64,000 bases of DNA from a bacterium (GTDB lineage Bacteria; Patescibacteriota; Microgenomatia; UBA1400; PJMF01): the NCBI GenBank assembly GCA_017431625.1, contig JAFRKQ010000010.1, forward strand, positions 17,503 through 81,502. The letters run 5' to 3'. Below are positions 3,201 through 60,488 of this stretch, piece by piece. A program made the translations under genes and the position numbers. The stretch's first letter is position 1. Every line of letters begins with the position of its first letter. The notes below the pieces were generated by a model, which did no database searches, was not told the DNA's origin, and saw only the letters and a list, made by a program, of their open reading frames with translations.

Positions 3201-4616
3201 ATGATTATGACCAATCAGAAGAATAAATTGGATGAATTGGTAAGTTTTTGCAAGTCGCGTGGTTTTGTTTATCCTTCGAGTGAGATTTATGGCGGCATGA
3301 GTGCAATTTATGATTATGGTCATTATGGTATTCTCCTGAAAAATAATATTCGCGATGCCTGGTGGCGAGAGATGGTCCAGTTGCGAGAAGATGTTTTAGG
3401 CCTTGACAGTGCGATTTTTATGGCACCGATGACCTGGAAGGCGTCTGGGCACGTGGATAGTTTTGATGACCCGCAGATTGATTGCAAAAAGTGTCACGCG
3501 CGCATTCGGGCCGATCATTTGTTGGAAGAGTTTGGACTCAATGTCGATAAAGAGCCTATCGATGTGGTTAATAGCAAAATTAACGAGCTCAAGCGAGCAG
3601 GGCAAAAGATTTGCTGTCCCAATTGTGGAAGTGAGGATTTAACACCGGCCAAGCGCTTTTCCTTGATGGTGAAGTCAAATATCGGCGCGCCTACCGATGA
3701 CTTATCTGAAGAGAATGTGGTTTATCTGCGTCCAGAAACTTGTGGGGGGATCTATTTGGAGTACAAAAACACCATGGACTCCCTCCACCCCAGTTTGCCT
3801 TTTGGAATTGCTCAGGTGGGTAAGGCTTTCCGTAATGAAATTATTGCCCGGCAGTTTGTTTTCCGCACGCGTGAGTTTGAACAAATGGAAATGCAGTACT
3901 TTTTGCATCCTGACGATATGAAACAGAAGTATGAATACTGGCGCGCTCAGCGTTGGAATTGGTATTTGAGTCTGGGGATGGACGAGAAAAAAATCCGCTG
4001 GTTCAAGCATCTTAAACTCGCGCACTATGCTAGCGAGGCTTATGACATCGAGTACGACAGTCAGTTTTTGGGCGGCTTTAAGGAAATCGAAGGCATTCAT
4101 GCTCGCGGTAATTGGGATTTGTCGCAGCACAGTAAATTTTCGGGTGTGGATCTGTCATATTTTGATCCCAAAACGGGCGAGAAGTTCATTCCCCATATTA
4201 TGGAAACGTCAGTGGGCTTGGGTCGGCTTTTCTTGATGTTCTTGGATTTTGCCTATACACGGGAAAAAATTGCTGGTAAAGATGATGAGCGTTTGGTTTT
4301 GCATCTTGATCCGCGTCTGGCGCCAGTCAAGGCGGCGGTCTTCCCACTTTTGCGCAACAAACCCGAGCTGGTGACCAAAGCACGCGAGCTGGCTGGGCGC
4401 TTGCGGCCACTTTATCAGATAGAGTTTGATGATCACGGCAATATTGGCAAACGCTATCGTCGCCAAGATGAAATTGGGACTCCACTGACAATCACAGTAG
4501 ATTTTGACAGTTTGAGTGGTGATGACGTGACCGTGCGCGAGCGCGACACCATGAGTCAGGAGCGCGTGAGCATCGCCAAGTTGACGGATTATTTGCGGGA
4601 GAAACTGGGTTTTTGA
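3201..4616 (+). CDS. glyQS: Glycine--tRNA ligase (class II, alpha2 type)
   Basis: 471 aa. Characteristic GlyRS N-terminus (FVYPSSEIYGG, WWREMVQ) and class II motifs. The stop overlaps the next gene's start (ATGA). Confidence 0.85.
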   Translation: MIMTNQKNKLDELVSFCKSRGFVYPSSEIYGGMSAIYDYGHYGILLKNNIRDAWWREMVQLREDVLGLDSAIFMAPMTWKASGHVDSFDDPQIDCKKCHARIRADHLLEEFGLNVDKEPIDVVNSKINELKRAGQKICCPNCGSEDLTPAKRFSLMVKSNIGAPTDDLSEENVVYLRPETCGGIYLEYKNTMDSLHPSLPFGIAQVGKAFRNEIIARQFVFRTREFEQMEMQYFLHPDDMKQKYEYWRAQRWNWYLSLGMDEKKIRWFKHLKLAHYASEAYDIEYDSQFLGGFKEIEGIHARGNWDLSQHSKFSGVDLSYFDPKTGEKFIPHIMETSVGLGRLFLMFLDFAYTREKIAGKDDERLVLHLDPRLAPVKAAVFPLLRNKPELVTKARELAGRLRPLYQIEFDDHGNIGKRYRRQDEIGTPLTITVDFDSLSGDDVTVRERDTMSQERVSIAKLTDYLREKLGF

Positions 4617-7204
4617 TGCAAGAGTGGCTTTATCGCGCCAAGCGCTACTATCACTTTTTCAAGACCGGTCTGCGCGGTTTTTGGGCAGCGGTCCGCTATC
4701 AGCATCCAGAAAAGAAGTTGAAGGTGATTTTGGTGACGGGTACTGATGGCAAGACCACTACCTCGAGCCTGATTTATCATTTGCTCAAAAATTGTGGCTA
4801 TAAAGTTGCCCTCCTCTCAACCGTGGCGGCATATATTGGTGAGGAAAAACTTGATACGGGCTTTCACGTGACCTCGCCATCGCCGGCTGATTTATATCGC
4901 TATATGGCCAAAATGGTTGATGCTGGCATGGAATACTTGGTTTTGGAGTTGACCTCACAAGGGGCTTATCAATGGCGAGCCTGGGGTATTCAAGCAGAAA
5001 TTGCGGCCCTAACCAATATTGATCAAGAACACTTGGATTATCACTTGACATTTGAAAATTACTTGGCTGCCAAGATGTTGGTGCTCAATGCAGCGCGAGT
5101 GGCTGTGGTTAATGACGAAATGCCATGCTTTAGTCAAGTCAAAAAGAGTCTTCACTCGAGCGTGAATTTGATTACTTTCAATCACGGCAGCCGTTTTAGT
5201 GCTCCGCTAGAAAAGGCCGTGCGTGAGCATTTTCGTGAAGACTACAATCGTCTCAATGCCTTTTTGGCACTCACGGTAGCCAAACAATTCAAGTTGACGG
5301 ACAAGCAACTCGAAGAAGCTTTGCAGGATTTTCGTCTGCCAGAAGGACGACTCCAAGTGGTGCCCAATCAGCTTGGCTTTACGATGATTGTTGATTTTGC
5401 TCATACACCCCAGGCGTTAGCGGCGGTGCTGCCAGCGATTCGCAAACAGTATCTGCCAGCCGGCAAAAAACTGATTGGGATTGTTGGCTGTGCGGGTTTG
5501 CGCGATCGTCACAAACGCCCCGTGATGGGACGAATTATGGCAGAACAATGTGATATTGCGATTTTTACCGCTGAGGATCCACGAACAGAAAATATTTGGT
5601 CTATCATCGCACAGATGAAACAGGATTTGGGCACGGGACACCGGCGAGTGATCTCCATTGCCAATCGTGAAGCGGCACTGCGTTGGGCGATTGACCACTA
5701 TGGTCATGACGGCAATGTGATTGCGATTTTTGGTAAAGGTCACGAACAAAGTATGAATTATGATGGTGTTCATGAGACGCTCTGGAATGACGTGAGTGGG
5801 GCACAAAAAATTATGCGTGAGCGTGAAACGGCGGCTTTGCCTGGGATTTTAACTAAGCAACATTTCTTTTTGATGGGGGTAAAGGGAGTGGGGATGACTG
5901 CTCTGGCTTCATGTTTGCTGGACGCAGGCAAGAGTGTAACTGGCAGTGACAGTAGTGAGCGCTTTCCCACCAGTCGCAATCTTGAGCGGCTCAAAATCCC
6001 CATTATCCCTTTGGATTGCGACCTGCCAGCGGACACGCAGGTGGTGATCTACACTGGTTCTCATGGTGGTCACACCCAAAAACAAGTCAAGCAAGCCATC
6101 GAGCGCGGTCTCCCGGTCTACTCGCATATGGAAGCACTGTCGTGGTTTTTTGATCATCATCAAGGGATAGCGGTGTGTGGTGTCGGCGGCAAGTCAAGCA
6201 TTAGTGCCATGTTGGCTTTTGTGAGCCAAAAGCTTGCGCCCCAGTCGTATGCCGTGGGAGTGGGTGAGATTATTGGTCTGCCCAAAACGGGTCAGTATCT
6301 TCCCGACAGCGATTATTTTATTGCCGAGGCAGATGAGTATGTGGCTGATCCGACCACTATTGGGACTGACAAACAGCACTTGCGCTTCTTGTATTTGCAC
6401 CCGCAAATAATCATTTGTCCCAATCTGCGTTTTGATCATCCAGACGTTTACCGCGATTTTGCCCACACTAAGGAGGCATTCTTACAGTTTTTTTGTCAAC
6501 TCAAGCCCGGCGGTACTCTGATTTACAATGGTGATGATTTGCCGCTGCAAGAGGTGGTATCGCGCTTACGCGCCCAACGCCCAGATGTAAGTATTATCAC
6601 TTATGGCTTGGGTGAGCAAAACGATTATTGTCTTGCCCGGGAAAAAATCACGCTCTCAATCCCGGGAGAATACAATCGCCTCAATGCTCTGGCATGTTTT
6701 GCGGCTACGCAAAAAATGGGCTTGCCAGCCAAACAAGTACGTACGAGTCTTCATGAATATCAATCAGTCTTACGCCGGATGCAACTGATTCGTGATGAAC
6801 ATGATATTCAGATTTGGGACGACTACGCCCACCACCCGAGTGAAATTGTGGCATCGATTGCGGCCATCAAAGAGCGTACTCACAAACGACGCCTAATTGT
6901 GGCTTTTCAGCCGCATACTTATTCGCGTACCAAACAATTACTGCCAGATTTTATTGAGAGTTTGGCGGCGGCCGATAATGTGTGGCTGCTGGATATTTAC
7001 CCTTCAGCGCGTGAGAGTTTTGATCCCACCATTTCCAGTCAAATGATTGTCGATGGTCTCAAGAAAAAAAAGCCCACGATCAAAGCACGTTTGTTGGGAG
7101 GAGTGGCTGATTTGCGTGAGACGATTGCTCAGGATTTGCGCGCTGGCGACACGCTGCTATTGCTGGGAGCGGGTGATATTTACCACGCGGTGCGAGATGA
7201 TTAA
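4613..7204 (+). CDS. Fused Mur ligase: MurE-like N-terminal half plus MurC-like C-terminal half
   Basis: 863 aa in one frame. N-half: P-loop LVTGTDGKTTT, MIVDFAHTPQAL, GCAGLRDRHKRPVMG, TAEDPRTE (MurE signatures, but without the usual about 100 aa N-terminal domain). C-half: GVKGVGMTALA, GIAVCGVGGKSS, DDYAHHPSEI, FQPHTYSRT (MurC signatures). Confidence 0.75.
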   Translation: MMQEWLYRAKRYYHFFKTGLRGFWAAVRYQHPEKKLKVILVTGTDGKTTTSSLIYHLLKNCGYKVALLSTVAAYIGEEKLDTGFHVTSPSPADLYRYMAKMVDAGMEYLVLELTSQGAYQWRAWGIQAEIAALTNIDQEHLDYHLTFENYLAAKMLVLNAARVAVVNDEMPCFSQVKKSLHSSVNLITFNHGSRFSAPLEKAVREHFREDYNRLNAFLALTVAKQFKLTDKQLEEALQDFRLPEGRLQVVPNQLGFTMIVDFAHTPQALAAVLPAIRKQYLPAGKKLIGIVGCAGLRDRHKRPVMGRIMAEQCDIAIFTAEDPRTENIWSIIAQMKQDLGTGHRRVISIANREAALRWAIDHYGHDGNVIAIFGKGHEQSMNYDGVHETLWNDVSGAQKIMRERETAALPGILTKQHFFLMGVKGVGMTALASCLLDAGKSVTGSDSSERFPTSRNLERLKIPIIPLDCDLPADTQVVIYTGSHGGHTQKQVKQAIERGLPVYSHMEALSWFFDHHQGIAVCGVGGKSSISAMLAFVSQKLAPQSYAVGVGEIIGLPKTGQYLPDSDYFIAEADEYVADPTTIGTDKQHLRFLYLHPQIIICPNLRFDHPDVYRDFAHTKEAFLQFFCQLKPGGTLIYNGDDLPLQEVVSRLRAQRPDVSIITYGLGEQNDYCLAREKITLSIPGEYNRLNALACFAATQKMGLPAKQVRTSLHEYQSVLRRMQLIRDEHDIQIWDDYAHHPSEIVASIAAIKERTHKRRLIVAFQPHTYSRTKQLLPDFIESLAAADNVWLLDIYPSARESFDPTISSQMIVDGLKKKKPTIKARLLGGVADLRETIAQDLRAGDTLLLLGAGDIYHAVRDD

Positions 7205-7355
7205 AATTGACCCTTTGTTTTTTTCTGTACTGAGTTTGTCACCAAAAACCAGAGGTACGCGTTTAACAAATGTTTAACAAGTGTTTAACAAAGTCCAAAT
7301 TTGCTGGACAAATTTTAACTTGTTTGCTGGACAATAATTAGCGAGTTGGTCATCA

Positions 7356-7374
7356 TAAAAAATACCCGCTGTAT
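7356..7374. terminator. Hairpin ACCCGCTgtatgAGCGGGT flanked by A-run/T-run; likely bidirectional rho-independent terminator
   Basis: On the minus strand the hairpin is followed by TATTTTTTAT, just downstream of the phosphatase gene end (7413). It also sits about 150 nt after the plus-strand Mur ligase gene. Confidence 0.5.
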
Positions 7375-7412
7375 GAGCGGGTGTTGATCTTTTGGCGATT
7401 GGAATTGACATT

Positions 7413-7949: not shown

Positions 7950-8079
7950 CAATACACACCTCCTTTGAAAGAACAAGTTGGCTTGATTATATCAAATTAT
8001 GACAAACTGTCAAGAGGGTAGTAGACATATATGTCAAATTGTGAGCACAAAAAGTGGGGGAGTAAACTCCCCCAAAATA

Positions 8080-8205
8080 TTAACGATGATAGGCCGGCCT
8101 CTCCCACAGCTGCTCGCTTTCGCGCTGCTTGGCGAGCGGTTCGAGTACGAGGTTACTCATATCCGGTTGTAGTGGTGGTGTTGGCTCGCGCTGGTATTCC
8201 TCCAT
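8080..8205 (-). CDS. Small acidic protein, 41 aa (MEEYQREPTPPLQPDMSNLVLEPLAKQRESEQLWERPAYHR)
   Basis: Perfect SD AAGGAGGTGA 6-7 nt before ATG 8205. Own minus promoter (-10 at about 8232-8240). A hairpin GGGGGAGTAAACTCCCCC plus T-run immediately follows the stop. Not in the ORF track (under 60 aa). Confidence 0.35.
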   Translation of the reverse strand: MEEYQREPTPPLQPDMSNLVLEPLAKQRESEQLWERPAYHR

Positions 8206-8465
8206 GGTCGATCACCTCCTTGCTGCATATTATATCATAATATTTGTGATTTTGATTGTCAAAATCATTATGAGTAGTACAAATGCATACAAAACATAAA
8301 TATTGCTGTTGTTAGCACTAAATCAGATTTTAGTCGGATTTATCCATAGCCTGTTATCAAGAATAATTAATTTGTTTGAGGATAATTTGGTACTTGACAA
8401 AAGTAGTAGTTTGTGGTACAATAAGTACCAGTTATGGTTCTTTAAAAAATGAAGGAGGAGATAAG

Positions 8466-8846
8466 ATGTACTTTACACTCAAACAAAAAGCATTGTTCTT
8501 GCAGTGCTGTGAAGAAAAAACCAACGCCCAAATCGCAACTACATGCCTATGCATCCTCGAAGCTGGCCTGAAACTCCTTGAAGTTAACGTTAGAAATATT
8601 AACGTTTATATGTATAAAGAAGATTTCTGGCTGTTGCGCGTAGAGGATAGTAGTATGTATATAGGCATGGGTAAGACACGAGAAATAGCTGAGGCAACAT
8701 TGCGATCAGTGCATGAGGAGTTACCGCACTTCAACAATCTATTATCTCATGTTCACGGGCTCAAGGTTACCCTAAGTGATATTAATCACCGTAATGATGA
8801 GCTCGGGTTTACACTCAGTTTTGAGCCAAAAGACACGCACATCTAA
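8466..8846 (+). CDS. Hypothetical protein (126 aa)
   Basis: Promoter TTGACAaaagtagtagtttgTGGTACAAT (8395-8424). RBS GAAGGAGGAG precedes ATG 8466. The track ORF starts further upstream at 8376. A terminator hairpin lies at 8866-8896. Confidence 0.5.
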   Translation: MYFTLKQKALFLQCCEEKTNAQIATTCLCILEAGLKLLEVNVRNINVYMYKEDFWLLRVEDSSMYIGMGKTREIAEATLRSVHEELPHFNNLLSHVHGLKVTLSDINHRNDELGFTLSFEPKDTHI

Positions 8847-8865
8847 CATGAATCATAACTCAACT

Positions 8866-8896
8866 ACCCGGTCACCATACCGGGTTTTTGCGTGAC
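8866..8896 (+). terminator. Rho-independent terminator (ACCCGGTcaccatACCGGGT plus TTTTTG)
   Basis: GC stem with a T-run downstream of the 8466-8846 gene. Confidence 0.45.
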
Positions 8897-9036
8897 AAAA
8901 ACTATCTGCTTGATAGATTTGCTTTTTGGGCTGCAATTCGGTTTCTTTAACTTAATAGCATTGTACTGTCATGTCGTACATTAAAACCAAACAAAAATTA
9001 CCATCTGAATTTAGATTTTGTGACCAAAAGGAGTTT

Positions 9037-9375
9037 TCATTCGAGCAAACCCTTGAATTCTGCACCAGGTTGGTGCAGAATTGGGCTGTAGAACTCGTAA
9101 AACCGTTTCATATAGCGGATATTTCTTGCAGAGAAACCTTGTACATCAGGAAATTCCACTTTAAGATCACGACTTAAATTATCGTAAAAACGACTGCCGT
9201 ATTTGTTGTCAAACTGCTTAGTAGTAATATCTCTCCCTATCCGCCAGTAAAGTCGCAGCATCTGTTCATTAACAGCAATACTGGCTTTGATTTGAGTGTG
9301 AGCAATGTCCTTCTTGAGCGTTGATAACCAGTGAACGTATTCTTGATTTTTGCTCGCCAATAATTCACTAGACAT
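9037..9375 (-). pseudogene. Truncated YhcG/DUF1016-family (PDDEXK nuclease-associated) N-terminal fragment
   Basis: 112 aa matching only the N-terminal region of about 350 aa YhcG-like proteins (LRLYWRIGRDI.., FPDVQGFSARNIRYMKRFY). It stops early; the C-terminal nuclease domain is absent. Confidence 0.5.
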
Positions 9376-9481
9376 ATCAGACTTTCTTTTTTATACTTAT
9401 AATTTACCATAAATAGTACAAAATGTCAAATTTTCGTGCAACCTCAGTATATTTCGGAATAAAAATTCCTATCAAACAAAG

Positions 9482-10576
9482 CTATCTAAACTGACCGTTA
9501 CAATAGTGATCTATTAAAATTCTTCTGTCAATTGAATCAGTCACTTCGTTATCAATAAATTGTGCACAACTAATGTCTGTTGATTCATGCAATAAAAACT
9601 CTGTAAATATCTTGAGAACAGTTTTTATTTCGCCTGTTTGATTATTTACTGTAAAACTCACACTATAACAATGTCCCATGCAGATATCACTAAAGGGGTT
9701 AATTGATGCATCAAATCTCTCAATGTGATTAGCGTGATCTTCGTCCGTGCTGATATCAGTGATACTTCTAGTATGAATGTTTGATAAAGGATAGCTATAT
9801 TCTTGTTTATCGAAATATTCATCAACCGTACCATTAGTTTTTTGCGTGGCGGCGATCAATGAATTTCTTTGTTTTTCTTCAACTTCTTCAAACTCGTCCA
9901 GCATGCCCAATTCCCTTAAAGCTACAGCATTTGCGTCAAATATTTGCATGTCTGAGTAATAGTATGTCAAAGAATATACTTTGCCGTCATATATGTATAA
10001 TGCCAATCTATCTCCTTCTTCTATTCCACCAAAAGGATTACTTAATTGTCTGGTTTGATCTTCGATAAATCCTAACAACAATAGAGCTTTTTTGGCTTGT
10101 TCATAATAGAGTTCCATATTATCTTGATTAACTTCAATTATCCAATAGGCCAAATCGTGATCAGAACCAAAAGAATGTCTAAATTGTGGGCCACTCATAG
10201 TTAAAACAGGTTCTAGCGATTTTAACCTCCACCAAGTATCGATGCCAGCGCCATGCCAGCCTTTGGATTGGCCATATTCCCATCCATCATATAAAAGAAG
10301 ATATTTTGAAATCTTTTGATTCAGTTGTGAAGAGCTTTGATTTGCACCCTCTAAATCATCATTTTTTTCTTTCAAATTAGTCAATTCATTTTCGCCAATA
10401 TTGTCTAATTCCAAATCATGGTCGGATGTCTCTTGTAAAGAATTTTTGTCTGACTTTTCTATGGTGAAATTTAAGTACATAGCTATCACAGTCAATATAC
10501 ACAACACTGCTAAAACAAATATAACTATCCTTTTGTAAAAAGGCTCTATTGCAGTAGCTTTGTTATTATTTGGCAT
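9482..10576 (-). CDS. Hypothetical membrane-anchored protein (N-terminal TM, acidic low-complexity linker)
   Basis: 364 aa. Noticeably AT-rich compared with its neighbours. No recognisable domain. Confidence 0.55.
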   Translation of the reverse strand: MPNNNKATAIEPFYKRIVIFVLAVLCILTVIAMYLNFTIEKSDKNSLQETSDHDLELDNIGENELTNLKEKNDDLEGANQSSSQLNQKISKYLLLYDGWEYGQSKGWHGAGIDTWWRLKSLEPVLTMSGPQFRHSFGSDHDLAYWIIEVNQDNMELYYEQAKKALLLLGFIEDQTRQLSNPFGGIEEGDRLALYIYDGKVYSLTYYYSDMQIFDANAVALRELGMLDEFEEVEEKQRNSLIAATQKTNGTVDEYFDKQEYSYPLSNIHTRSITDISTDEDHANHIERFDASINPFSDICMGHCYSVSFTVNNQTGEIKTVLKIFTEFLLHESTDISCAQFIDNEVTDSIDRRILIDHYCNGQFR

Positions 10577-10653
10577 ATCTGCATTATTACATCACGTTTA
10601 TATTTCTTATTAATCAAGATTATTCACGATTGTAGCGAGAAAGACTCTCTTTG

Positions 10654-10727
10654 TGACCCCAAAGGGATTCGAACCCTTGATTTTTTGGATGAGAACCAAA
10701 TGTCCTGGACCGCTAGACGATGGGGCC
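10654..10727 (-). tRNA. tRNA-Glu: tRNA-Glu (anticodon CTC)
   Basis: Reverse complement GGCCCCATCGTCTAGCGGTCCAGGACATTTGGTTCTCATCCAAA..AGGGTTCGAATCCCTTTGGGGTCA. The cloverleaf closely matches E. coli tRNA-Glu. Minus consensus promoter -10 at 10743-10752. Confidence 0.85.
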
Positions 10728-10882
10728 ACATGTTAAAGATGAGCTATTATATCATGAAATCACACGCTTTGGGCAAGCAATTTCGTCACTAAATAATGAT
10801 ATTTTGTGATATAATAAGTGCATATTTACTGTGCTGGTAAATGTTCTTAAAAAACATACAACCAATGGAGGTGAGATAGTTG

Positions 10883-11083
10883 ATGAGTGCCGAAGGAATA
10901 CTGTTGATGATAGCAGTCTATCTGCTAGCGATCGGATCAATCATTAAGGTGCATTGGCGTGAGTTTTCGCGGCAAGATGACACTTTTGGGGCGTGTTTGT
11001 GCATGCTTTATCGCGCAATATTGACCCTGTTTGTATTGTATTATGCTTGGGTCGGCATTAAAGCGAGCCTCGAGTGCTTCTGA
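10883..11083 (+). CDS. Small hydrophobic membrane protein (66 aa)
   Basis: GGAGGTGA 9 nt upstream of ATG 10883. Upstream -10 TGTGATATAAT at about 10803-10815. Confidence 0.35.
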   Translation: MSAEGILLMIAVYLLAIGSIIKVHWREFSRQDDTFGACLCMLYRAILTLFVLYYAWVGIKASLECF

Positions 11084-11108
11084 TTTATCTTGGGCTGTAT
11101 TGTGACCG

Positions 11109-12191
11109 TCAGGGATTTCTCACTGGCGGTTTTTTTGTTGTGTCCACAAAAAAATGTAAATTATGGATACTGGCCAAGCGAGCAAAACTGTCATCACCGA
11201 TTTTGTACAAATGGTGTAAATACTCGCGAGTGGTCGTAGTGCAAGTGTGACACTGACAGTGTGGATCCAATGGCTGGCGATCATGGGTATATTGAGACTT
11301 ATTGAGATTGAGGAAAATGTAGTCTTTAATTTTTTGTGGGTCATGCACATACATGCGAGCGTGTCTGGCGTCACGAGTGGGGAGGACGCAGTCAAAAATC
11401 TGGTAACCTTGAGCGATCATCGCCTGGATTTCGTCGGGCTTACCAAAACCCATCGCGTAGCGTGGCCAATCGTCTGGCGTCAGTTGAGCATTTTTGGCCG
11501 ACCAGTCCAGATCCACACCACCGTGGTCATTAAATTTTTGTCCGCCCAAACAATAACCATCAAAACCAATTTTGAGCAATTCTTGGGCACACCAGCGGCG
11601 ACATTCCCAATCATCATGACCTTGGATGACAGCAAAAATCAAAGGACGCTCATGGTCAGTGAGACGCCAATATTTGATTTGACGGTCATATTCCTGACGG
11701 CAACGTTTGGCCCAGGAAACGGTGCGCTCAACACTCTGCTCGATCCGGGGACGCGTGGCGCTCGGAGGGGTAAAATCATCCAAACAAATGACGATGTCGC
11801 TGCCAAGGGCAAATTGCATCCTGATAGAGTCCTCAGGACGAAAGATGATCTTGTGTTGTTTTTTGGGGCCAGTATAGGTGACAAGGCCCCGATCAGTAAT
11901 TTTACCAAAACCAGGGATTTTTTGGAAAAGCGAGTGGACCTGAAAACCACCAGAATCTGAGATAATCAAACCATCAAAGCCCATGAGTTTTTTTATGCCG
12001 CCACAATCAAGTAAAAAATCGCGGCCAGGATAGTGATTGAGATGCCAGGTATTGACAATCATACCCTCAACTCCCGCCGCCAGCAAATCTGGAGTATCCA
12101 AACCCTTGACCACGCCGCGAGTGGCATCTGGACAAAAAATCGGCAGCGGATAAGTCTTGCCTTTGATTGTTAGCGACTCAATCATGAACAT
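11109..12191 (-). CDS. tgt: Queuine tRNA-ribosyltransferase
   Basis: 360 aa. NTWHL, DSGGFQV, and the C-terminal zinc motif CQCHTC. Confidence 0.85.
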   Translation of the reverse strand: MFMIESLTIKGKTYPLPIFCPDATRGVVKGLDTPDLLAAGVEGMIVNTWHLNHYPGRDFLLDCGGIKKLMGFDGLIISDSGGFQVHSLFQKIPGFGKITDRGLVTYTGPKKQHKIIFRPEDSIRMQFALGSDIVICLDDFTPPSATRPRIEQSVERTVSWAKRCRQEYDRQIKYWRLTDHERPLIFAVIQGHDDWECRRWCAQELLKIGFDGYCLGGQKFNDHGGVDLDWSAKNAQLTPDDWPRYAMGFGKPDEIQAMIAQGYQIFDCVLPTRDARHARMYVHDPQKIKDYIFLNLNKSQYTHDRQPLDPHCQCHTCTTTTREYLHHLYKIGDDSFARLASIHNLHFFVDTTKKPPVRNP

Positions 12192-12498
12192 CCTTTGCGA
12201 GTTGATAGGACCTATTTATCAAGTAAATTTCTGTTCCAACGCCAATAATAAGCCAAAAGTAAACTAGAGGGTTGCTTTGCCAAGCTGCCTGAAAGTGGCC
12301 GTGAAAAAGATGCGATAAGCCACGTAAAGTTCCACAGCCTAAGCAATCATGATGAAATATAAGTCGAAACAGGCACAACTCAAAAGGCAAATCTGACCAG
12401 AAGCTTTCTGGTAGGAAAGAAAATGATAGTAGCCCTAGCGGTAAACAAACGGCCAGCAGACGATATGCTAGTGGTTGATAGGCCAAAGAAACTCTCAT
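12178..12498 (-). CDS. Small membrane protein, DUF2752-like (C-x-x-C-G-T-L-R motif)
   Basis: 106 aa. HHDCLGCGTLRGL. Hydrophobic. Confidence 0.45.
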   Translation of the reverse strand: MRVSLAYQPLAYRLLAVCLPLGLLSFSFLPESFWSDLPFELCLFRLIFHHDCLGCGTLRGLSHLFHGHFQAAWQSNPLVYFWLIIGVGTEIYLINRSYQLAKDVHD

Positions 12499-17537: not shown

Positions 17538-17643
17538 TAGGGTATGAAAGAACAATTAAGAGTCTGTCGAGTCCAGTCAAGCCGAGCTGATATCGGTCTT
17601 GGTGAGTATCAAGTAGCTTGGCTTTTTGCCTGGAGTCAATGAA

Positions 17644-18972
17644 ATGTCAAAGTTTGTGGTCACAGGTGGTACACCGCTTTATGGTTCAGTAAGAGTTGGA
17701 GGGGCGAAGAATTCCTCCTGGAAAATAATGATCGCCAGCCTCCTGGCTAGCTCCCCTTCACGTCTGCTCAATTTACCGCATATTGCTGATGTCGCATTTG
17801 TGGCGGATTTGATTCGTACTCTGGGTGGACGGGTCGAGTGTCGTGGCGAGCGAATGTTTGTCATTGACCCGAGTGGTCTTAAGGCTGACCAGATTGATTC
17901 TGACAAAGGTGAGTTTTCGCGCTCATCCGTGGCCTTTTTGCCAGTGCTTTTGGCTCGTTTTGGCGAGGCTTGTGTGCCCTTGCCTGGGGGTGATAAAATT
18001 GGCAAGCGACCACTAGAGCGCCATTTCCAAGGTCTAGAGACACTGGGGGTCAACCTCGAGGTCAAAAATGGCTTGGTCAAGGCTAGTTTGCCTGGGGGAC
18101 ATTTTCGCGCAGGTCAGTATCGCTTTGCCAAAAACTCTCACACTGGCACCGAGACACTCTTGATGGCTGCTAGTCTGGCTCGTGGTACTACGATTTTGGA
18201 GAATGCTGCTGTTGAGCCAGAAGTTCTCGATTTAGTGGGTTTTCTCAATAGCTGTGGGGCGCAAATTCGTCTGATTCGGCCACGCACTTACGAGATTCAT
18301 GGAGTGGAACGACTCTATGGTAGCATCTATAAGATCATGCCTGATCGTAATGAGACTGTTTCTTACGCGTGCGCGGCGATTGCCACCCGTGGCGATGTTA
18401 TTGTTGAAAATGCCCGCGCGGCTGATTTAACGGCTTTTTTGGCAAAATTGGCTGATATTGGTGCTGGCTTTGAGGTCGGTGATTTTGGGGTGCGATTTTT
18501 TTACTATGACACCTTGCAGGCCACTGACGTGACTACCTCGATTCATCCGGGGTTTATGACGGACTGGCAACCGCTTTGGGCCACACTTTTGACACAATGT
18601 AAGGGAGTGAGCACAATTCATGAGACGGTCATGCAGTCACGCTTTCAGTATGTAGCACCACTGCAAGCCATGGGGGCGCAAATGGAGATTTTCCAGCCAG
18701 CAGTCACTGATCCTGATCGGACTTATAATTTTAATTTGAGTGACGATAAACCTGATGCCTGTCACGCCGTGCGTATTACTGGCCCAACCCGTTTCCGAGG
18801 TGGCGAGTTTGCGGTCCATGATCTACGTGCGGGAGCAACATTGATTTTGGCGGGACTAGGTAGCAGTGAGCAGTTGACACTCACCAATATCGAGCAAATT
18901 GATCGTGGTTACGAGCATTTTGACGAAAAACTGCGCACCTTGGGAGCAAAGATTGAGAGGGTAGAGGACTAA
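17644..18972 (+). CDS. murA: UDP-N-acetylglucosamine 1-carboxyvinyltransferase
   Basis: MSKFVVTGG..GAKNSSWKIMIASLLA.. (MurA/EPSP-synthase fold). GGAG 8 nt upstream of ATG 17644. The track ORF starts 18 nt earlier. Confidence 0.85.
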   Translation: MSKFVVTGGTPLYGSVRVGGAKNSSWKIMIASLLASSPSRLLNLPHIADVAFVADLIRTLGGRVECRGERMFVIDPSGLKADQIDSDKGEFSRSSVAFLPVLLARFGEACVPLPGGDKIGKRPLERHFQGLETLGVNLEVKNGLVKASLPGGHFRAGQYRFAKNSHTGTETLLMAASLARGTTILENAAVEPEVLDLVGFLNSCGAQIRLIRPRTYEIHGVERLYGSIYKIMPDRNETVSYACAAIATRGDVIVENARAADLTAFLAKLADIGAGFEVGDFGVRFFYYDTLQATDVTTSIHPGFMTDWQPLWATLLTQCKGVSTIHETVMQSRFQYVAPLQAMGAQMEIFQPAVTDPDRTYNFNLSDDKPDACHAVRITGPTRFRGGEFAVHDLRAGATLILAGLGSSEQLTLTNIEQIDRGYEHFDEKLRTLGAKIERVED

Positions 18973-18973
18973 A

Positions 18974-20026
18974 ATGACACCGGCTTTGTATTTTGGTTTT
19001 CTCTTTCTGGCACTAGCGGTATCAATGGTTTTGATTGTGCCTTTTATTGGTTTGCTCTATAAACTCAATTTTAAGCGAGCCCGGCAAAAAACGATTGATC
19101 CTTTTGGCCGTCCTACCCCGATTTTTGATAAATTTCATGCTGGTAAGGCCGGGACACCAGTGGGTGGTGGTATTTTGGTGATTTTGGTAGTGAGTGTGCT
19201 GATGATTTTGGCGATGGCACTTATAAACGCCTTACAATTACCGATGACCTATAATTACACAAACAAAAATGCAGAAATCTTTGTCCTTCTATTTACGTTT
19301 TTGTCTTTTGGGGCTTTGGGGCTTTATGACGACGTGAAAAAATTTTTTGGCTTTGAAAAAACGGGTTTTTTTGGGATGCATATGCCACAAAAGTTGGCAA
19401 TTCAAGTTATTTTGAGTTTGATTATCGCTTGTACGATGTACTGGGCACTGGGGATTGATTTTATCAATATTCCCTTGATCGGGGAGATCCAGCTGGGGTG
19501 GCTGTATGTACCTTTCGCCGCTTTTGTCATTGTTTCGTTTACCAATGCCGTGAATATTACTGATGGCCTCGATGGTCTTGCTGGTGGGGTGATGCTCATT
19601 AGTCTTTTTGGTTTTTGGCTGATTTGCACTATGTCCTCTACGGTGGGGCTTGATGGGCCACTGTCACTTTTTATTACTCTTTTTATTGGCACTTTGATTG
19701 CTTTTGTTTATTTTAATGTGTACCCGGCACGGATATTTTTGGGGGACGTGGGGGCATTGTCTTTTGGCGCGATTTTAGCGGTGATGGGCTTGCTGGTCGG
19801 CAAGCCAGCTGCCCTGGTGGTTATGGGTGGGATTTTTGTGGTGGAGATTTTTACCTCACTAGTGCAGCTTTTGTCCAAAAAATTCCTTCATCGCAAGTTT
19901 TTTCCGGTGGCGCCACTACATTTATTCTTTCAAAAAATCGGCTGGCAAGAACCAAAAATTGTCCAACGTTTTTGGCTTTTGCAAATTGTCCTCACTCTTT
20001 TTGGCATTTGGCTAACTTTGTTCTAA
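18974..20026 (+). CDS. mraY: Phospho-N-acetylmuramoyl-pentapeptide transferase
   Basis: NAVNITDGLDGLAGG motif. Polytopic membrane protein. Confidence 0.9.
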   Translation: MTPALYFGFLFLALAVSMVLIVPFIGLLYKLNFKRARQKTIDPFGRPTPIFDKFHAGKAGTPVGGGILVILVVSVLMILAMALINALQLPMTYNYTNKNAEIFVLLFTFLSFGALGLYDDVKKFFGFEKTGFFGMHMPQKLAIQVILSLIIACTMYWALGIDFINIPLIGEIQLGWLYVPFAAFVIVSFTNAVNITDGLDGLAGGVMLISLFGFWLICTMSSTVGLDGPLSLFITLFIGTLIAFVYFNVYPARIFLGDVGALSFGAILAVMGLLVGKPAALVVMGGIFVVEIFTSLVQLLSKKFLHRKFFPVAPLHLFFQKIGWQEPKIVQRFWLLQIVLTLFGIWLTLF

Positions 20027-20057: not shown

Positions 20058-21191
20058 ATGCGCAATCATGAGTCCCAATTATTACTACTGACTGCTGCCC
20101 TTTTGGTGGGGGTGGGAACACTCTTGGTTTTTGATGTCTCAGCACCGGCCTCGATTGAAATTATCCACTCTCATGACCCTTATTATGTCATTAAACATCA
20201 ACTTCTCACCGTGGTGTTTGGAGCAGTGGCTTTGTCGCTGGGAGTGTTAATCCCGATTGTCTGGTACCAGAAAATTCCGCGCTTGATTTACTTTGTTGGC
20301 CTGGGGGTGTTGCTGCTCCCGATTATTTTTCCTGATGCCAGTCATGGTGCCATGCGCTGGATCAGGATTTTTGGCTTTTCCTTTCAAACAAGTGAGCTAA
20401 CTAAATTTTGCCTAATAATTTTTTTTGCTCATTTGGTCCAAAAAACCCAAAATGAATGGATATTTTTGGCCTGGTTAATTCCCCCAATGCTCTTGATGAT
20501 GTGGCAGCGAGATTTAGGGACATTAGTAGTCATGGGCGCGAGTTGTTTGGCGATTTATTTCCTGGCGTCACCCTCGTGGACAAGTATTTTCAAGGTGGTC
20601 GGCCTAGTGCTACTCTCCTTTTTGGTATTGATTATGTCTGCCAGCTATAGACGAGAGCGGATTATGACATTTTTTCGCGGATTTATCAATAATAGTCAGA
20701 CACAAAACGAAAGTGTACGTGCAGCTATTGATGACTTTCACGTCCGTCGCTTGCGCTTAGCTATTGGTCGGGGCCAGGTCTTTGGTCAAGGTATTGGTCA
20801 GTCGCAACAAAAAACCCGTATCCCAGAGGTACACACCGACTCGATTTTTGCAATTTTTGCGGAAGAGACTGGCTTTTTGGGGGTAACGGTCTTGCTGGGA
20901 CTTTTTGGCTTTTTCCTCTTTTTACTCGCTCGCATTGCCAGTTTGGATGCTCTTGCTCGAGAACAACAACTGATTGCTTATGGTATCTTGGTCTGTTTTG
21001 CCACACAAATTATTATCAATCTGGGGGCTATTAGCGAATTACTGCCGCTGACCGGCATTACTTTGCCGTTTATCTCTTATGGCGGTTCCTCCTTGATCGC
21101 TTCGCTGTTTTTAACCGGGGTGGGGATCAATTTGGGCATGAGCGAGCCAGTGACGACCAGACAGAGCCTGACAAGGAGGCGGTATGCCTAG
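20058..21191 (+). CDS. ftsW: SEDS-family peptidoglycan glycosyltransferase FtsW/RodA
   Basis: GQGIGQSQQK..PEVHTDSIFAIFAEETGFLG. Leaderless: -10 TGTGGTAAAAT is 7 nt before the ATG. Confidence 0.85.
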   Translation: MRNHESQLLLLTAALLVGVGTLLVFDVSAPASIEIIHSHDPYYVIKHQLLTVVFGAVALSLGVLIPIVWYQKIPRLIYFVGLGVLLLPIIFPDASHGAMRWIRIFGFSFQTSELTKFCLIIFFAHLVQKTQNEWIFLAWLIPPMLLMMWQRDLGTLVVMGASCLAIYFLASPSWTSIFKVVGLVLLSFLVLIMSASYRRERIMTFFRGFINNSQTQNESVRAAIDDFHVRRLRLAIGRGQVFGQGIGQSQQKTRIPEVHTDSIFAIFAEETGFLGVTVLLGLFGFFLFLLARIASLDALAREQQLIAYGILVCFATQIIINLGAISELLPLTGITLPFISYGGSSLIASLFLTGVGINLGMSEPVTTRQSLTRRRYA

Positions 21192-22323
21192 ATTATTGAT
21201 CACTGGTGGACATTTGACGCCGGCGCTGGCTTTTATTGATTGGCTGCGCCATGAGCATCCGGATTGGTCGGTAGTTTTTGTGGGCCGTGAATACGCTCAA
21301 GTACAAACTAAGCAACCTTCTTGGGAGCGGGAGGAAATTAGCAAAAGAAGCTTGCAGTTTATTCCTTTTGAAGGGCAAAAAACAGGACATTTCAATCCTT
21401 TCACCTTTACTCAAACTGTCGGCCAAGCGGCGCGAATCTTGCGTGAACAAAAAGTCAACGTCGTTTTGAGTTTTGGCGGCTATTTGGCTGTTCCTTTTGC
21501 CATAGCGGCTCGCTATTATCACCTTGGCGTCGTCACTCACGAGCAAACTCGCGTCCTGGGTCGCAGCAATCGACTTTTATCGTTTTTGGCGGGCAAAACT
21601 GCTATTTCTTATCCAGACACTCAAGTTCCTTTTTATGTGGGCGTGACCACTCTCACCGGTAATCCCTTGCGCAGTCAACTTTTTGTCGCCAATAGTCCTC
21701 AACCCACCTGGTTTACACCGACACTGGCCCGCCCAGTGCTTTATATTTCTGGCGGTTCTCAGGGAGCGAAGGCACTCAATGAGTTAATTTTACCGATTTT
21801 AGCTCATCTCACTCAAGATTTTTTGGTGATTCACCAGGTGGGACGGCGCAGTAGTCTGCGTGATCCTTTAGGTGAAATCAATCAGTACATTGAGCAGCAT
21901 TATCCCAATTTAACCAATTATTTCCCACGAGAATTTCTCAGTGTAGTGGAGCTGGCCTATTTTTATCCCCGCATTAATATTGCTTTGGGTCGCAGCGGAG
22001 CCAATACGGTGGCGGAGTTGACCGCTTTTAAAATCCCAGCCCTCTATATCCCATTACCCCAAGCCAATTACGATGAACAGTATCTTAATGCCGCCGCCCT
22101 GGCCCAAAAAGGTGGGGCCATTGTGGCCCGACAAGAGGAGCTGACGCCAAGCCGAGTCCTTGAGCTGGTCCGCCAGCTGGAAAAGCAACAAGAGTCTATG
22201 AGTCAGGTTTTGGGCCAGCAGCCAACTAGTTTTGACGCCTGTGATAAGATTTTTGCCCTCCTGCTTGCAGTCCTAAACCCCACACCACCAGTCAAATCGT
22301 CTCCAAATGATTCTAGGGCGTAG
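21184..22323 (+). CDS. murG: Undecaprenyldiphospho-muramoylpentapeptide beta-N-acetylglucosaminyltransferase
   Basis: ITGGHLTPALA.., GGSQGAKALNE. AGGAGG RBS. Overlaps the ftsW 3' end. Confidence 0.85.
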   Translation: MPRLLITGGHLTPALAFIDWLRHEHPDWSVVFVGREYAQVQTKQPSWEREEISKRSLQFIPFEGQKTGHFNPFTFTQTVGQAARILREQKVNVVLSFGGYLAVPFAIAARYYHLGVVTHEQTRVLGRSNRLLSFLAGKTAISYPDTQVPFYVGVTTLTGNPLRSQLFVANSPQPTWFTPTLARPVLYISGGSQGAKALNELILPILAHLTQDFLVIHQVGRRSSLRDPLGEINQYIEQHYPNLTNYFPREFLSVVELAYFYPRINIALGRSGANTVAELTAFKIPALYIPLPQANYDEQYLNAAALAQKGGAIVARQEELTPSRVLELVRQLEKQQESMSQVLGQQPTSFDACDKIFALLLAVLNPTPPVKSSPNDSRA

Positions 22324-22479: not shown

Positions 22480-24489
22480 ATGCAGAAATTGAGTTTAAAT
22501 CAAGCCAGTGATAAGTCTGTGGCCAAACCTGTCCGTTCCCAGGCAAAAAAGTCTGATTGGTCACTTCCATGGTGGGGCTGGGTTTTGTGTGTTTTGATGA
22601 GTTTAGTGATATTTGTTCTGACCGTGGCGGTGACTATTTATCTGAGTGTCAAAAGTAGTATTACCAAATTCCGCCTTCAAGCCACTGATACCTATATTAA
22701 AGCTCAAGCGGCCTATCAGGCCTTTAAGGATCAAGACCTAGAACTTACCCGCACTAGGCTCGCCGAGGCAAAAACCAGTCTGGACTATACCCAAAAACGT
22801 TTTGCTCGCTTGCAGTCACCACTGACAGTTTTGGGTTACAAACAATATTTTGCTGATGGTCAGGTGCTGATGGCGGCAGCCAGTGAAGGTTTGGATTTGG
22901 GCGATCACATCATTGAGATTGTGGAGCCAGCCGCGGAAATGTTGGGCTTTACTGATGACAAGCAGGAAGATGGCGATGGCACCACTGAAGATCGGGTCAA
23001 ACGTCTTTTGGATACACTCCAGATTATCGGACCGCAACTAGACGAGGTGATTACGGGCTTAGAGGGCATTAGTACCCATCTCAAGACTATCGACCCTCAA
23101 AACTATCCCGAAAAATTAGGCAAATTTTTCGGCGCCAAAATACTCCTCGGCTATCTCGGACGGCCAGAATTGGCTGATTTTGCCGTGCGTGAGCAAATTG
23201 CCAGTGGCCAACAGTCGCTGACAGATGCGATTGGCACGCTGAAGGAATATCGGCCGATTCTCGACAAGATCCCCCAAATGGCTGGTGGGACGGGCGAGAG
23301 AATGAAGTATCTAGTCATCTTTCAAAACAACAACGAACTGCGCCCCACCGGTGGTTTTTTGACCGCTTATGCCTTGATTTATATTGAAGATGGCAAGGTC
23401 ATGCCGGAAAAATCCGATGATATTTATGAGTTGGATAAGAAGTTTAAAAAGAAAATTACCATTCCGGAAAAACTGGGCAAATATCTCACCACTGAAAAAT
23501 ATTGGAACTTACGTGACATGAACATTGATCCGGATTTCTACCGCTCCATGACCACCTTCATTGAAAATTATGATCTGGTACCTGACGAACCACATGATAT
23601 TGATGGCATTATTACCATTGATACGATGGTTTTGACTGATTTGATAGATCTTTTGGGCCCGATACAAGTGGAGGGCTATGGTGAGTTTTCAACCGAGCCG
23701 GATGCTAAATATAATGCTCCACAAATTATTGTGGCTTTGTCGGAGATTATTACTCGTCCTACGCCTTACATTCGCGAAGATCGCAAGGGTATCCTCGGGC
23801 CGATGATGAAGGCAATGCTAGAGAAGGTTTATGGCGCCAGCAAGGATAAATTTCCTGGACTTTTTGCCACCATGCTCAAGCTGATTGATGGTCGGCATAT
23901 CCAGACCTATTTTATTGATAAGCAGCTTCAAGAGTCGGCGGAAATGATTAATTTGGCCGGACGGATGATTCCTCCCGATGATGGCAGCGACTTTATGGCC
24001 ATTGTGGATGCCAATCTAGGTGGTGCTAAGTCCAATCTTTTTATTGACTATGAAGTTGAGCAGACCATTCTCCCACCAGAAAACGGTATCCTCGAAAAGC
24101 GGGTGGTGATCACCTATACCAATTCTCAGGCTGGCGACAATTGTAATCTCGAGGCCGGTCTTTTATGTCTCAATTCGGTCAATAATGATTGGTTCCGCCT
24201 GTATTTGCCTGAGGGCGCCAAGCTTATTAGTGCTAAGGGCTTCAAGGGTGAGGCCGAGACTTACGATGAAAATGGCTTTACCGTGATTGATGGCTACTTT
24301 TCTCTCAATCCCAAGAGTACCACCAAAATCGATCTTGAGTACACTGTCCCATATGAGGATACTCAAGAGTATCGCCTCAAGATTTGGCAACAAGGTGGCT
24401 TGCGCGAGGTACCACATCTACTTGATGTTAATGACAACCAAGAACAGATCGTGGTTACTGGTGATACCAACTATAAAGCTAAGTTTTGA
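22480..24489 (+). CDS. DUF4012-domain membrane-anchored protein
   Basis: 669 aa. YLVIFQNNNELRPTGGFLTAYALIYIEDG is the DUF4012 signature. N-terminal TM. A second -10 (TACAAT 22467-72) sits 7 nt before the ATG. Confidence 0.65.
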   Translation: MQKLSLNQASDKSVAKPVRSQAKKSDWSLPWWGWVLCVLMSLVIFVLTVAVTIYLSVKSSITKFRLQATDTYIKAQAAYQAFKDQDLELTRTRLAEAKTSLDYTQKRFARLQSPLTVLGYKQYFADGQVLMAAASEGLDLGDHIIEIVEPAAEMLGFTDDKQEDGDGTTEDRVKRLLDTLQIIGPQLDEVITGLEGISTHLKTIDPQNYPEKLGKFFGAKILLGYLGRPELADFAVREQIASGQQSLTDAIGTLKEYRPILDKIPQMAGGTGERMKYLVIFQNNNELRPTGGFLTAYALIYIEDGKVMPEKSDDIYELDKKFKKKITIPEKLGKYLTTEKYWNLRDMNIDPDFYRSMTTFIENYDLVPDEPHDIDGIITIDTMVLTDLIDLLGPIQVEGYGEFSTEPDAKYNAPQIIVALSEIITRPTPYIREDRKGILGPMMKAMLEKVYGASKDKFPGLFATMLKLIDGRHIQTYFIDKQLQESAEMINLAGRMIPPDDGSDFMAIVDANLGGAKSNLFIDYEVEQTILPPENGILEKRVVITYTNSQAGDNCNLEAGLLCLNSVNNDWFRLYLPEGAKLISAKGFKGEAETYDENGFTVIDGYFSLNPKSTTKIDLEYTVPYEDTQEYRLKIWQQGGLREVPHLLDVNDNQEQIVVTGDTNYKAKF

Positions 24490-58054: not shown

Positions 58055-58111
58055 TTAGCAGTCTGTACCCTTATAAGTTTATTCAATTCACAAAAAATCT
58101 CTCACAAGAGA

Positions 58112-58140
58112 GATTTTTTGTTGGTAACAATCAAAAAACT
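58112..58140. terminator. Bidirectional rho-independent terminator AAAAAATCTCTCacaaGAGAGATTTTTTG
   Basis: Perfect 8-bp stem flanked by an A-run and a T-run, 60 nt after the giant gene's stop. Confidence 0.55.
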
Positions 58141-58205
58141 TAAGTTTGTGCTTACTCTTATTTTGACTCATAAAAACATCATCAATATGTTATAATACCA
58201 CTTCT

Positions 58206-58790: not shown

Positions 58791-58892
58791 CAGCGCGTCT
58801 TAATTCTAGGCCGGACTGTCCAGGTATCTGCGTCCCGCAACCGACCAGCAAAGGTCAACGATTGATACCAATCTGACTATGCTCGGTAATCA

Positions 58893-58923
58893 CATTATAC
58901 CATAAAATTGCGATTTGTCAACT
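58893..58923 (-). promoter_or_regulatory. Strong minus-orientation promoter (TTGACA-17-TGGTATAAT) pointing into the 3' end of the 58206-58790 gene
   Basis: Reverse complement TTGACAaatcgcaattttaTGGTATAATg. The transcribed antisense segment contains CCTGGACAGTCCGG and TTAAG. Confidence 0.5.
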
Positions 58924-59085
58924 ATTTATATGACAATGAAAAAACTGCTTTATATCCACTAATCTTTATGATTAACACTTAGCTCAGCTGCACTAGCACT
59001 TTCACCCAACTAGAATTATTTTTTCGGCAAGTACCAGCACCTAGTCTGTCACAAAAAAACATTTCTTTACTTCAGTCACTCACGA

Positions 59086-59185: not shown

Positions 59186-59322
59186 GATAGAATAACCAAT
59201 ACATCTAACAAGTAAAAAACAATCCGACAATTATTGCCCGAGGTAAAAATATTGGTAAACTTTGAGGCAGTTGCAACTATTGCAATTATACCTGTGTTGT
59301 GACAAAATAGAAGGCGATAATT

Positions 59323-60477: not shown

Positions 60478-60488
60478 TCAAAGGTAAT

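Follow-up and report, generated by a model that had tools for sequence, protein, structure and literature searches.

The locus described here raises the question of whether a MurE ligase that lacks its uridine diphosphate (UDP)-binding domain, joined in one reading frame to a complete MurC ligase, can be a genuine gene product. It lies in a 64,000-nucleotide stretch of a Patescibacteria genome (assembly GCA_017431625.1, contig JAFRKQ010000010.1, positions 17,503 to 81,502 of the forward strand), hereafter the window, in whose coordinates all positions are given unless another locus is named. An initial annotation, made from the sequence alone, had described a single open reading frame (ORF) fusing the two ligases and had allowed that a frameshift or an assembly error might have joined two adjacent genes. 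The fusion proves to be real; it is conserved and selection acts on it. The gene is probably a selectively maintained one that encodes a bifunctional peptidoglycan-precursor ligase composed of MurC and a short form of MurE.

The two ligases are recognized separately by profile models. Amino acids (aa) 25-401 match the NCBIfam murE model TIGR01085 over model positions 74-471 of 472 (339.8 bits, above the cut-off of 257.3) and aa 417-860 match the murC model TIGR01082 over positions 1-445 of 449 (382.3 bits, above the cut-off of 335.1), with all scores for the equivalog models specific for diaminopimelate (DAP) or Lys MurE falling below their cut-offs. The start of the MurE match at model position 74 reflects the absence of the N-terminal UDP-binding domain (domain 1). 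Pfam likewise finds two Mur_ligase_M and two Mur_ligase_C domains along with one N-terminal Mur_ligase domain, the last at aa 421-515 in the MurC half, and phmmer aligns the MurC half end to end with solved MurC proteins among the PDB chains. The division into a MurE without its N-terminal domain and a full MurC is borne out by these models, and all eight motifs quoted in the initial annotation (GTDGKTTT, DFAHTPQAL, GCAGLRDRHKRPVMG, TAEDPRTE, GVGMTALA, GGKSS, DDYAHHPSEI and FQPHTYSRT) are present in the translation.

The start of the gene required a small revision. As listed, the ORF runs from a TTG at 4613 to 7204 on the plus strand (863 aa) and its translation contains no internal stop, so the claim of a single ORF stands, but the ATG at 4616 is the more likely start and would give a product of 862 aa. 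At this point the stop codon of the upstream glyS gene (3' end GGT TTT TGA) overlaps the ATG by one base in the arrangement TGATG, such that the A of the stop is the first base of the fusion gene, which opens ATG CAA GAG (M Q E). This position is also the start of the deposited protein MBQ6449544.1 (P0001; 862 aa, 100% identical) and of all close homologues, and the P-loop glycine is residue 42 of the 862-aa protein. Because glyS overlaps the start and the homologues share it, a missing N-terminal exon or domain cannot be accommodated upstream. The glyS gene is immediately upstream in every relative of the clade that was examined, fused or unfused (L001-L004, L006, L008 and L009), and the one-base overlap suggests translational coupling of the whole unit.

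The same fusion recurs in related organisms. Three more homologues of 862 aa (P0002, P0003 and P0004, from ENA, Logan and JGI assemblies) are 88, 71 and 69% identical to the window protein, and P0385, which falls in the 90% cluster of P0001, is also 862 aa in length. At the DNA level, fused relatives were examined at L008 (P0002), L009 (P0003) and L001 (P0004-like, from the GTDB metagenome-assembled genome (MAG) JAZQJV01), and the data sources of the fused genes are an NCBI MAG, ENA ERZ1667847, Logan SRR33322312, and JGI with the GTDB MAG JAZQJV01. The four genes are each 2586 nucleotides (nt) long and align without gaps. The distance from FGKGHE at the end of MurE to G[IV]KGV in the first MurC strand is 147 nt in all four, in frame and with no stop, despite linker letters that differ at many positions. 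Between the window and L008, the ratio of nonsynonymous to synonymous substitution rates (dN/dS) is 0.038 in the MurE core, 0.045 in MurC and 0.10 in the N-terminal cap (first 30 codons), and with dS values of 1.4-2.0 in the two cores the silent sites are near saturation while the frame is kept; purifying selection acts strongly on both modules of the fusion. No segment of the gene evolves faster than the linker (proportion of nonsynonymous differences, pN, 0.20-0.42), and among the relatives the MurE half (65-75% identity) is more conserved than the MurC half (49-66%). The GTDB representative genomes with close relatives include one from goat jejunum.

Fused and unfused sister lineages occur side by side, and the origin of the fusion can therefore be read directly from the sequences. 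In L002, L003, L004 and L006, the order glyS-murE-murC is kept, but a stop closes the murE frame and murC is read in a different one, with the two genes overlapping by 8 to 20 nt or separated by a gap of a few to ~30 nt. The spacing between the same two motifs is 143 nt in L002, 139 in L003, 196 in L004 and 172 in L006, never a multiple of three. The overlapping arrangement is also found in L007, on a short contig, and in the nearest outgroup (P0015, at L010) a short murE is followed by murC ~100 nt downstream. The initial annotation had held that separate murE and murC homologues at this position would speak against a fusion; such homologues do exist (L002, L003, L004, L006 and L007), but they represent the ancestral state and do not refute it.

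In neighbour-joining trees of either half, the four fused genes form one clade (bootstrap 157/200 for the MurE half and 161/200 for the MurC half) with unfused lineages as sisters. A trace of the former gene boundary persists in L009, where the linker still reads ...GE-MLEKNNFF-LVGIKG and matches the MurC start MLEKNNFY (MLEKNNFYLVGIKG) of the unfused L004. The old MurC Met codon is now ATT in the window, GTA in L008 and GCG in L001, and with the ancestral start codon lost, MurC can no longer be made from the old start in these three. This loss in three of the four fused genes offers indirect support for a single fusion polypeptide in the cell; an in-frame ATG (the Met of KIMRER) is a candidate internal MurC start in the window and is absent from L008. 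The simplest history would be one fusion event in this clade, in which the murE stop was lost and after which the fused gene was kept across several speciations. The ancestral order would have been glyS, short murE and murC, with the ligase genes abutting or overlapping in different frames, and a small indel in one sub-clade of gut- and rumen-associated Patescibacteria would have removed the murE stop and brought murC into frame. The fusion is evolutionarily young.

The loss of domain 1 is not a product of the fusion, because many stand-alone MurE show the same truncation. An exhaustive homology search covered 1.84 billion representatives at 50% clustering, and the best 150 matches were assessed. 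At least 31 of these 150 are stand-alone MurE, 389-454 aa in length, whose P-loop falls at aa 30-57, while the short-MurE-MurC architecture appears among them in P0001 only and about five are full-length MurE-MurC fusions (P0241, P0242, P0244, P0251 and P0263). The short forms include P0015, P0039, P0078 and P0084, as well as a Chloroflexi ORF (L005, 10001-11347) and the MurE module of P0017; in all of them the P-loop lies at residues 34-73 and the N-terminal motif is related. All six short forms that were tested pass the TIGR01085 cut-off, with matches that start at model positions 68-77. Mis-called starts are ruled out because the upstream genes abut or overlap the short murE: glyS abuts it in the window, gltX abuts it in L012 and a MurF-like gene overlaps it in L005. 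Based on sequence, the stand-alone short MurE (390-490 aa) constitute a large family in the Patescibacteria and at least one Chloroflexi genome.

Nor is a split-off domain 1 encoded nearby. A profile hidden Markov model (HMM) built from 103 MurE N-terminal domains picked up every one of 18 independent full-length MurE (58-128 bits) and matched none of 32 short forms. With this positive control in place, the window and loci L001-L005, translated in all six frames, gave no match to it. Searches of the same sequences by tblastn with single MurE N-terminal domains also returned nothing, though they lacked a positive control, as L005 itself carries a short MurE.

In place of domain 1, the short forms share an N-terminal cap. 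Anchored on the P-loop, 49 of them yield the consensus (K/R)NxYHLxxAxxAxxrYGFPxKKLKVIGVTGTDGKTT, in which the His of the cap is present in 45 of 49, and the cap is composed of 18% K/R, 22% F/W/Y/H and 2% D/E. The members of the window clade begin M[QK]E[WL][LI]YR.KR.YHFF.TG, whereas the distant MurE-MurC fusions P0005-P0013 keep a normal N-terminal domain of ~90 residues. By alignment, cap residues 1 to ~18 are specific to short MurE and residues 19-30 are homologous to the pre-P-loop helix of all MurE, so that the cap helix forms an N-terminal extension of the one which, in full-length MurE, connects domain 1 with the P-loop strand.

The locus L005 was considered as a relative of the fusion and rejected, as it holds no fusion: the genes there are a short MurF-like one, a short MurE and MraY. 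In this Chloroflexi MAG (JAADYX01), positions 8772-12369 hold a division and cell wall (dcw)-type cluster in which the MurF-like ligase gene overlaps that of the short MurE (448 aa), with MraY following. The MurF-like ligase (429 aa) is itself without an N-terminal domain; its match to TIGR01143 covers positions 58-414 and, at 254 bits, falls short of the 288.6 cut-off. Both the MurE and the MurF-like ligases of this genome are truncated.

The catalytic residues of the short MurE module were mapped by alignment to Mycobacterium tuberculosis MurE (2WTZ), with invariance judged over 52 aligned MurE sequences (Table 1). All mapped residues are invariant except S87 and Y210, and H139 and H143 are invariant as well; K153 occupies the position of M. 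tuberculosis K262, which we take to be the carbamylated lysine. The catalytic residues checked in both modules of the fusion are intact and, as far as the alignment can tell, domain 1 is the only part of a MurE that the short module lacks. The roles of T158, T195, T196, S222, R230 and Y343 have been described for the M. tuberculosis enzyme, in which domain 1 is the UDP-binding domain with a diphosphate loop containing G83 and S84 (PMC6736417). A DNPR-type arginine marks specificity for meso-DAP (PMC6736417), and the EDPR motif accordingly predicts a substrate of the meso-DAP type, though only tentatively, given that the closest solved structure, Thermotoga maritima MurE (4BUB, residues 92-481 against aa 24-402 of the window protein), was named an LD-lysine ligase by its depositors.

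A structural model of the whole protein is consistent with two ligase modules. The AlphaFold2 prediction, built on an alignment of 52 sequences that combined fusions and MurE-only proteins (A3), has a mean predicted local distance difference test score (pLDDT) of 89.8 and a predicted template modelling score (pTM) of 0.63. It places a helix at residues 2-27, runs the C-terminal helix of MurE into a lower-confidence linker at ~401-415 (pLDDT ~68 for aa 401-410) and begins the first MurC strand at 416-420. With Foldseek, the MurC half superposes on Haemophilus influenzae MurC (1P3D) with a template modelling (TM) score of 0.86 and a root-mean-square deviation (rmsd) of 2.7 Å, which indicates the three-domain fold including the Rossmann-type N domain. 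For the MurE half, the alignments to MurE structures extend over ~420 columns. The alignment of the model to the MurE-MurF chimera 8F5D spans 768 columns at an rmsd of 20.6 Å, implying either that the arrangement of the modules differs from that chimera or that the prediction is unreliable. An earlier MAFFT alignment of fusions, MurE-only and MurC-only sequences (A2) was discarded after every MurE was aligned to the MurC half, a misalignment caused by the paralogy of the two halves.

We infer from this evidence that both modules are active enzymes. The MurC module would add L-Ala to UDP-N-acetylmuramic acid (UDP-MurNAc) to form UDP-MurNAc-L-Ala, MurD, encoded outside the window, would add D-Glu, and the short MurE module would then add the diamino acid. 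Because the MurD step lies between them, the MurC and MurE steps are non-consecutive and direct substrate channelling is excluded. The benefit of the fusion would lie in a fixed 1:1 ratio of MurC to MurE, in co-expression and in the co-localisation of parts of a presumed Mur complex. The basic, aromatic cap is a candidate replacement for the nucleotide and diphosphate contacts made by domain 1.

Several points weigh against this interpretation. With the diphosphate-binding loop gone along with domain 1, efficient use of a UDP-linked substrate is only assumed. The window clade has TSQG (Q115) where nearly all other MurE have TSHG, the DNPR-type arginine is not fully diagnostic for meso-DAP given the deposited name of 4BUB, and the inter-module geometry of the model is uncertain, as its pTM indicates. 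Further, the sequence covered comprises a 64-kb part of this genome and, for each relative, ~20 kb around the gene, and a full-length MurE or a second MurC may be encoded elsewhere in these genomes.

A broader proposal, which is possible but doubtful, is that the short MurE serves as the sole housekeeping MurE across much of the Patescibacteria and some Chloroflexota with a new mode of UDP-substrate recognition, and that the fusion is the covalent end-point of a partnership. Recognition would depend either on the conserved N-terminal helix, which is basic and aromatic and has a near-invariant His, or on an obligatory partnership with a neighbouring Mur enzyme. If true, this would mean that a family of essential enzymes targeted by antibiotics has a distinct way of recognizing its substrate.

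It is unlikely that the short MurE module is something other than a UDP-MurNAc-dipeptide ligase, whether an enzyme acting on a substrate that is not nucleotide-linked (lipid-linked as for MurT, or a free or recycled peptide) or a non-catalytic scaffold for MurC. The absence of the UDP-binding domain would suit such a role, MurT is described in the literature as also having no N-terminal domain and acting on lipid II, and a basic, aromatic and almost acid-free cap could suit binding at a membrane surface. Yet the module retains all of the MurE-specific motifs, among them the DNPR-type arginine and the residues of domain 2 that in M. tuberculosis MurE make contact with the MurNAc-peptide, and it scores above the MurE HMM cut-off. 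It has a Mur_ligase_C domain instead of the MurT-type C-terminal domain, and the sole MurT model match is weak and lies in the MurC half (NF052464; 48.5 bits against a cut-off of 800). The low dN/dS of the MurE core speaks against a decaying or purely structural module, the short MurE of L005 is encoded directly upstream of mraY in a dcw-type cluster, and the neighbourhoods examined contain no other MurE candidate.

Somewhat less probable still is a split MurE, in which domain 1 would be a separate small protein encoded elsewhere or its role would be taken by the Rossmann domain of the fused or adjacent MurC. A physical partnership of this kind fits with the observation that the short murE is always adjacent to, overlapping or fused to murC in this clade and in the nearest outgroup (L010), but elsewhere short murE genes lie away from murC, after gltX in L012 and L013 and between murF and mraY in L005. 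The short family also has its own conserved N-terminal motif, and the domain-1 HMM, for all its sensitivity to full-length MurE, finds nothing in the window or in L001-L005. The artefact first suspected, an indel error in the assembly joining adjacent murE and murC, would need an error of only 1-2 nt in an overlap such as close relatives have exactly here, but it has almost no probability left and is excluded by the recurrence of the same in-frame junction, with differing linkers, in four diverged organisms (69-88% identity) from four data sources, as well as by the length of P0385, the purifying selection on both halves, the clade formed by the fused genes in both gene trees and the replaced murC start codon in three of the four. 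The preferred interpretation thus remains that of a genuine fusion of MurC and a short MurE.

The features of the fusion gene and its surroundings are collected in Table 1.

Table 1. Features of the fusion gene, its encoded protein and the neighbouring genes of the window, with M. tuberculosis (Mtb) MurE counterparts of mapped residues
Feature	Position	Strand	Residues	Basis or contents
glyS, dimeric-type glycine--tRNA ligase	3201..4616	+		NCBIfam NF003211, 577.9 bits
Fusion gene: short MurE, linker and MurC	4616..7204	+		862 codons plus stop
N-terminal cap (MQEWLYRAKRYYHFFKTGLRGFWAAVR)	4616..4696	+	1-27	Predicted single long helix in place of MurE domain 1 (AlphaFold2 helix 2-27)
MurE central ATPase domain	4697..5344	+	28-243	PF08245; P-loop G42-T49, E111, T113, S114, R121, H139, H143, putative carbamylated K153
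MurE P-loop residues			K46, T47	Mtb K157, T158
MurE substrate site			T86, S87	Mtb T195, T196
MurE residue			E111	Mtb E220
MurE substrate site			T113	Mtb S222
MurE substrate site			R121	Mtb R230
MurE carbamylated lysine position (putative)			K153	Mtb K262
MurE adenine stacking			Y210	Mtb Y343
MurE C-terminal amino-acid-binding domain	5345..5815	+	244-400	PF02875 aa 245-376; DFAHTP (D260), GCAGLRDRHKRP, EDPR (R323, DNPR-type arginine), GKGHE
MurE residue			D260	Mtb D392
MurE DNPR-motif arginine			R323	Mtb R451
Junction/linker (...RERETAALPGILTKQ...)	5816..5860	+	401-415	Former MurE tail and former MurC start
MurC module, complete	5861..7201	+	416-862	TIGR01082, PF01225 aa 421-515, Foldseek, phmmer; Rossmann-type N domain; central GVGGKS P-loop, EADE, DHPD; C-terminal DDYAHHP, FQPHTYSRT
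GC-rich hairpin (AATACCCGCT / AGCGGGTGTT)	7361..7385			Inverted repeat between convergent 3' ends of fusion gene and His_Phos_1 gene; likely terminator
MurA	17626-18972			
MraY	18974-20026			
FtsW	20058-21191			
MurG	21184-22323			
MurJ	44401-46113			

Pfam scans of the other long ORFs found no further Mur ligase in the window, and tblastn with parts of MurD matched only the fusion gene, in line with the initial annotation, which had seen no separate murC or murE in the dcw-like cluster of the window. No MurB or Ddl was seen in the window in the same Pfam scans. In the fused relatives, a MurB gene lies ~3.7 kb downstream on the opposite strand in L009, and in L001 a homologue is directly downstream, also on the opposite strand. 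The fusion gene of L009 is followed, at 10174-12400, by genes for a 7TM_transglut protein and an ATP-grasp enzyme (ATPgrasp_ST/RimK-like).

The fusion gene and the His_Phos_1 gene converge, and the gap separating their 3' ends contains three tandem 11-nt copies of GTTTAACAA(A/G)(T/G) at 7261-7293, then two copies of TTTGCTGGACAA (7300-7345) and the hairpin at 7361-7385. The 11-nt repeats are kept in the 88%-identical relative L008 (4971-5003) despite diverged flanks, and L008 has a hairpin with nearly the same stem. These elements (7261-7385) may serve as a binding site for a protein or belong to a small RNA.

Elsewhere in the window, murG is directly followed by a gene for a DUF4012 protein of 669 aa and then by a 248-aa ORF without a Pfam match (22480-24489); ftsQ-type genes usually occupy this position in dcw clusters. 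A stretch of low guanine-plus-cytosine (GC) content (8001-10576; 0.372) carries ORFs with no Pfam family or a weak one only, among them 8376-8846 and 9482-10576, the latter with a sub-threshold SpoIIIAH-like match, and an ORF at 9037-9375 that lay outside the Pfam scan; a tRNA gene (10654-10727) adjoins the stretch. The region 53945-63738 begins with a 1369-aa ORF (53945-58054) without a Pfam match, followed by five ORFs of 148-384 aa that also have none, and GC content falls to 0.405 at 58-60 kb against ~0.46 overall.

The known systems nearest to the window protein differ in which of its two features they share. No mention of a MurE-MurC or MurC-MurE chimera was found in a full-text search of the literature, and in the literature searched no description of a MurE without its N-terminal domain was found, MurT being the sole member of the family described there in such terms. 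The locus therefore presents an undescribed Mur pairing built on an undescribed but widespread truncated MurE. Of the two, the short MurE is the more interesting, as an essential ligase that apparently works without the textbook UDP-binding domain, and it bears on annotation, where it is labelled as ordinary MurE, and on the trimming of essential enzymes in small genomes. The stand-alone short MurE (among others P0015, P0243, P0246, P0290, P0084 and the L005 ORF) share the truncation and the N-terminal motif (LYWLKRPYHFVKTGL in P0015 and LYRAKRYYHFFKTGL here), are 40-56% identical to the MurE half of the window protein and differ in being unfused; P0015 is the nearest outgroup in the tree. MurT, the lipid II amidation subunit, and FolC/FPGS are similar in having an ATPase domain after a short N-terminal segment and no UDP-binding domain. 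MurT has a different C-terminal domain (DUF1727) and FolC acts on folates. Unlike either, the window module has MurE-specific motifs and passes the MurE cut-off, and the FolC models give weak partial matches only.

Full-length MurE-MurC(-MurB) fusions, such as the Candidatus Woesebacteria protein KKR63216.1 (UniRef100_A0A0G0SLG7) and P0005, P0007, P0008 and P0013, have the same module order and a short junction, but they keep domain 1 (P0005 matches TIGR01085 from position 4). The fusions P0005-P0013 are 864-1253 aa long and 35-39% identical to the window protein over its full length, some carry MurB, and those of Candidatus Woesebacteria are deposited under the plain name MurE. They occupy at least three other places in the MurE tree, whose neighbour-joining topology is weak at depth, and probably arose independently of the window clade. 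The C-terminus of MurE appears, from the sequences collected, to be a hot-spot for fusion in uncultured lineages (P0040-P0072, of ~670 aa; P0017; P0018; P0014, P0016, P0019, P0020, P0023 and P0028; P0008 and P0010). Its partners there include the N-terminal uridylyltransferase half of GlmU (in many clusters, including the short-MurE P0017), MurD and MurC-MurB, and in P0018 the partner is a MurL-like UDP-MurNAc-L-Ala-L-Glu epimerase (225 bits, below the cut-off of 700).

Natural Mur chimeras are taken as evidence for a cytoplasmic complex of peptidoglycan enzymes and as stable targets for structural work, and a survey of identified species in UniProt lists six types: MurE-MurF, MurC-Ddl, MurC-MurB, MurG-MurC, MurD-FtsW and MraY-MurG (PMC10214165). 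The only bifunctional NCBIfam models that match the window protein are those for MurE/MurF and MurC/Ddl. The MurE-MurF chimera (Bordetella pertussis, PDB 8F5D; NCBIfam NF008896), which is mostly proteobacterial (PMC10214165), resembles it in having an N-terminal MurE whose C-terminal domain is joined head to tail, through a minimal linker or none, to the N-terminal domain of another Mur ligase, and in having two catalytically complete modules, a property predicted for the window protein by sequence. It differs in that MurE keeps domain 1 and the partner, MurF, performs the next step, which makes channelling conceivable, whereas the partner in the window acts two steps earlier. Closer in this respect are MurG-MurC (Actinobacteria), MurC-Ddl (in Chlamydiae as well as Firmicutes) along with MurD-FtsW, covalent fusions of peptidoglycan enzymes for non-consecutive reactions that have been read as devices for stability, stoichiometry or complex assembly and not for channelling (PMC10214165). 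None of these pairs MurE with MurC; the fusion itself extends a known theme, and MurE-MurC adds to it a pairing absent from the published survey.

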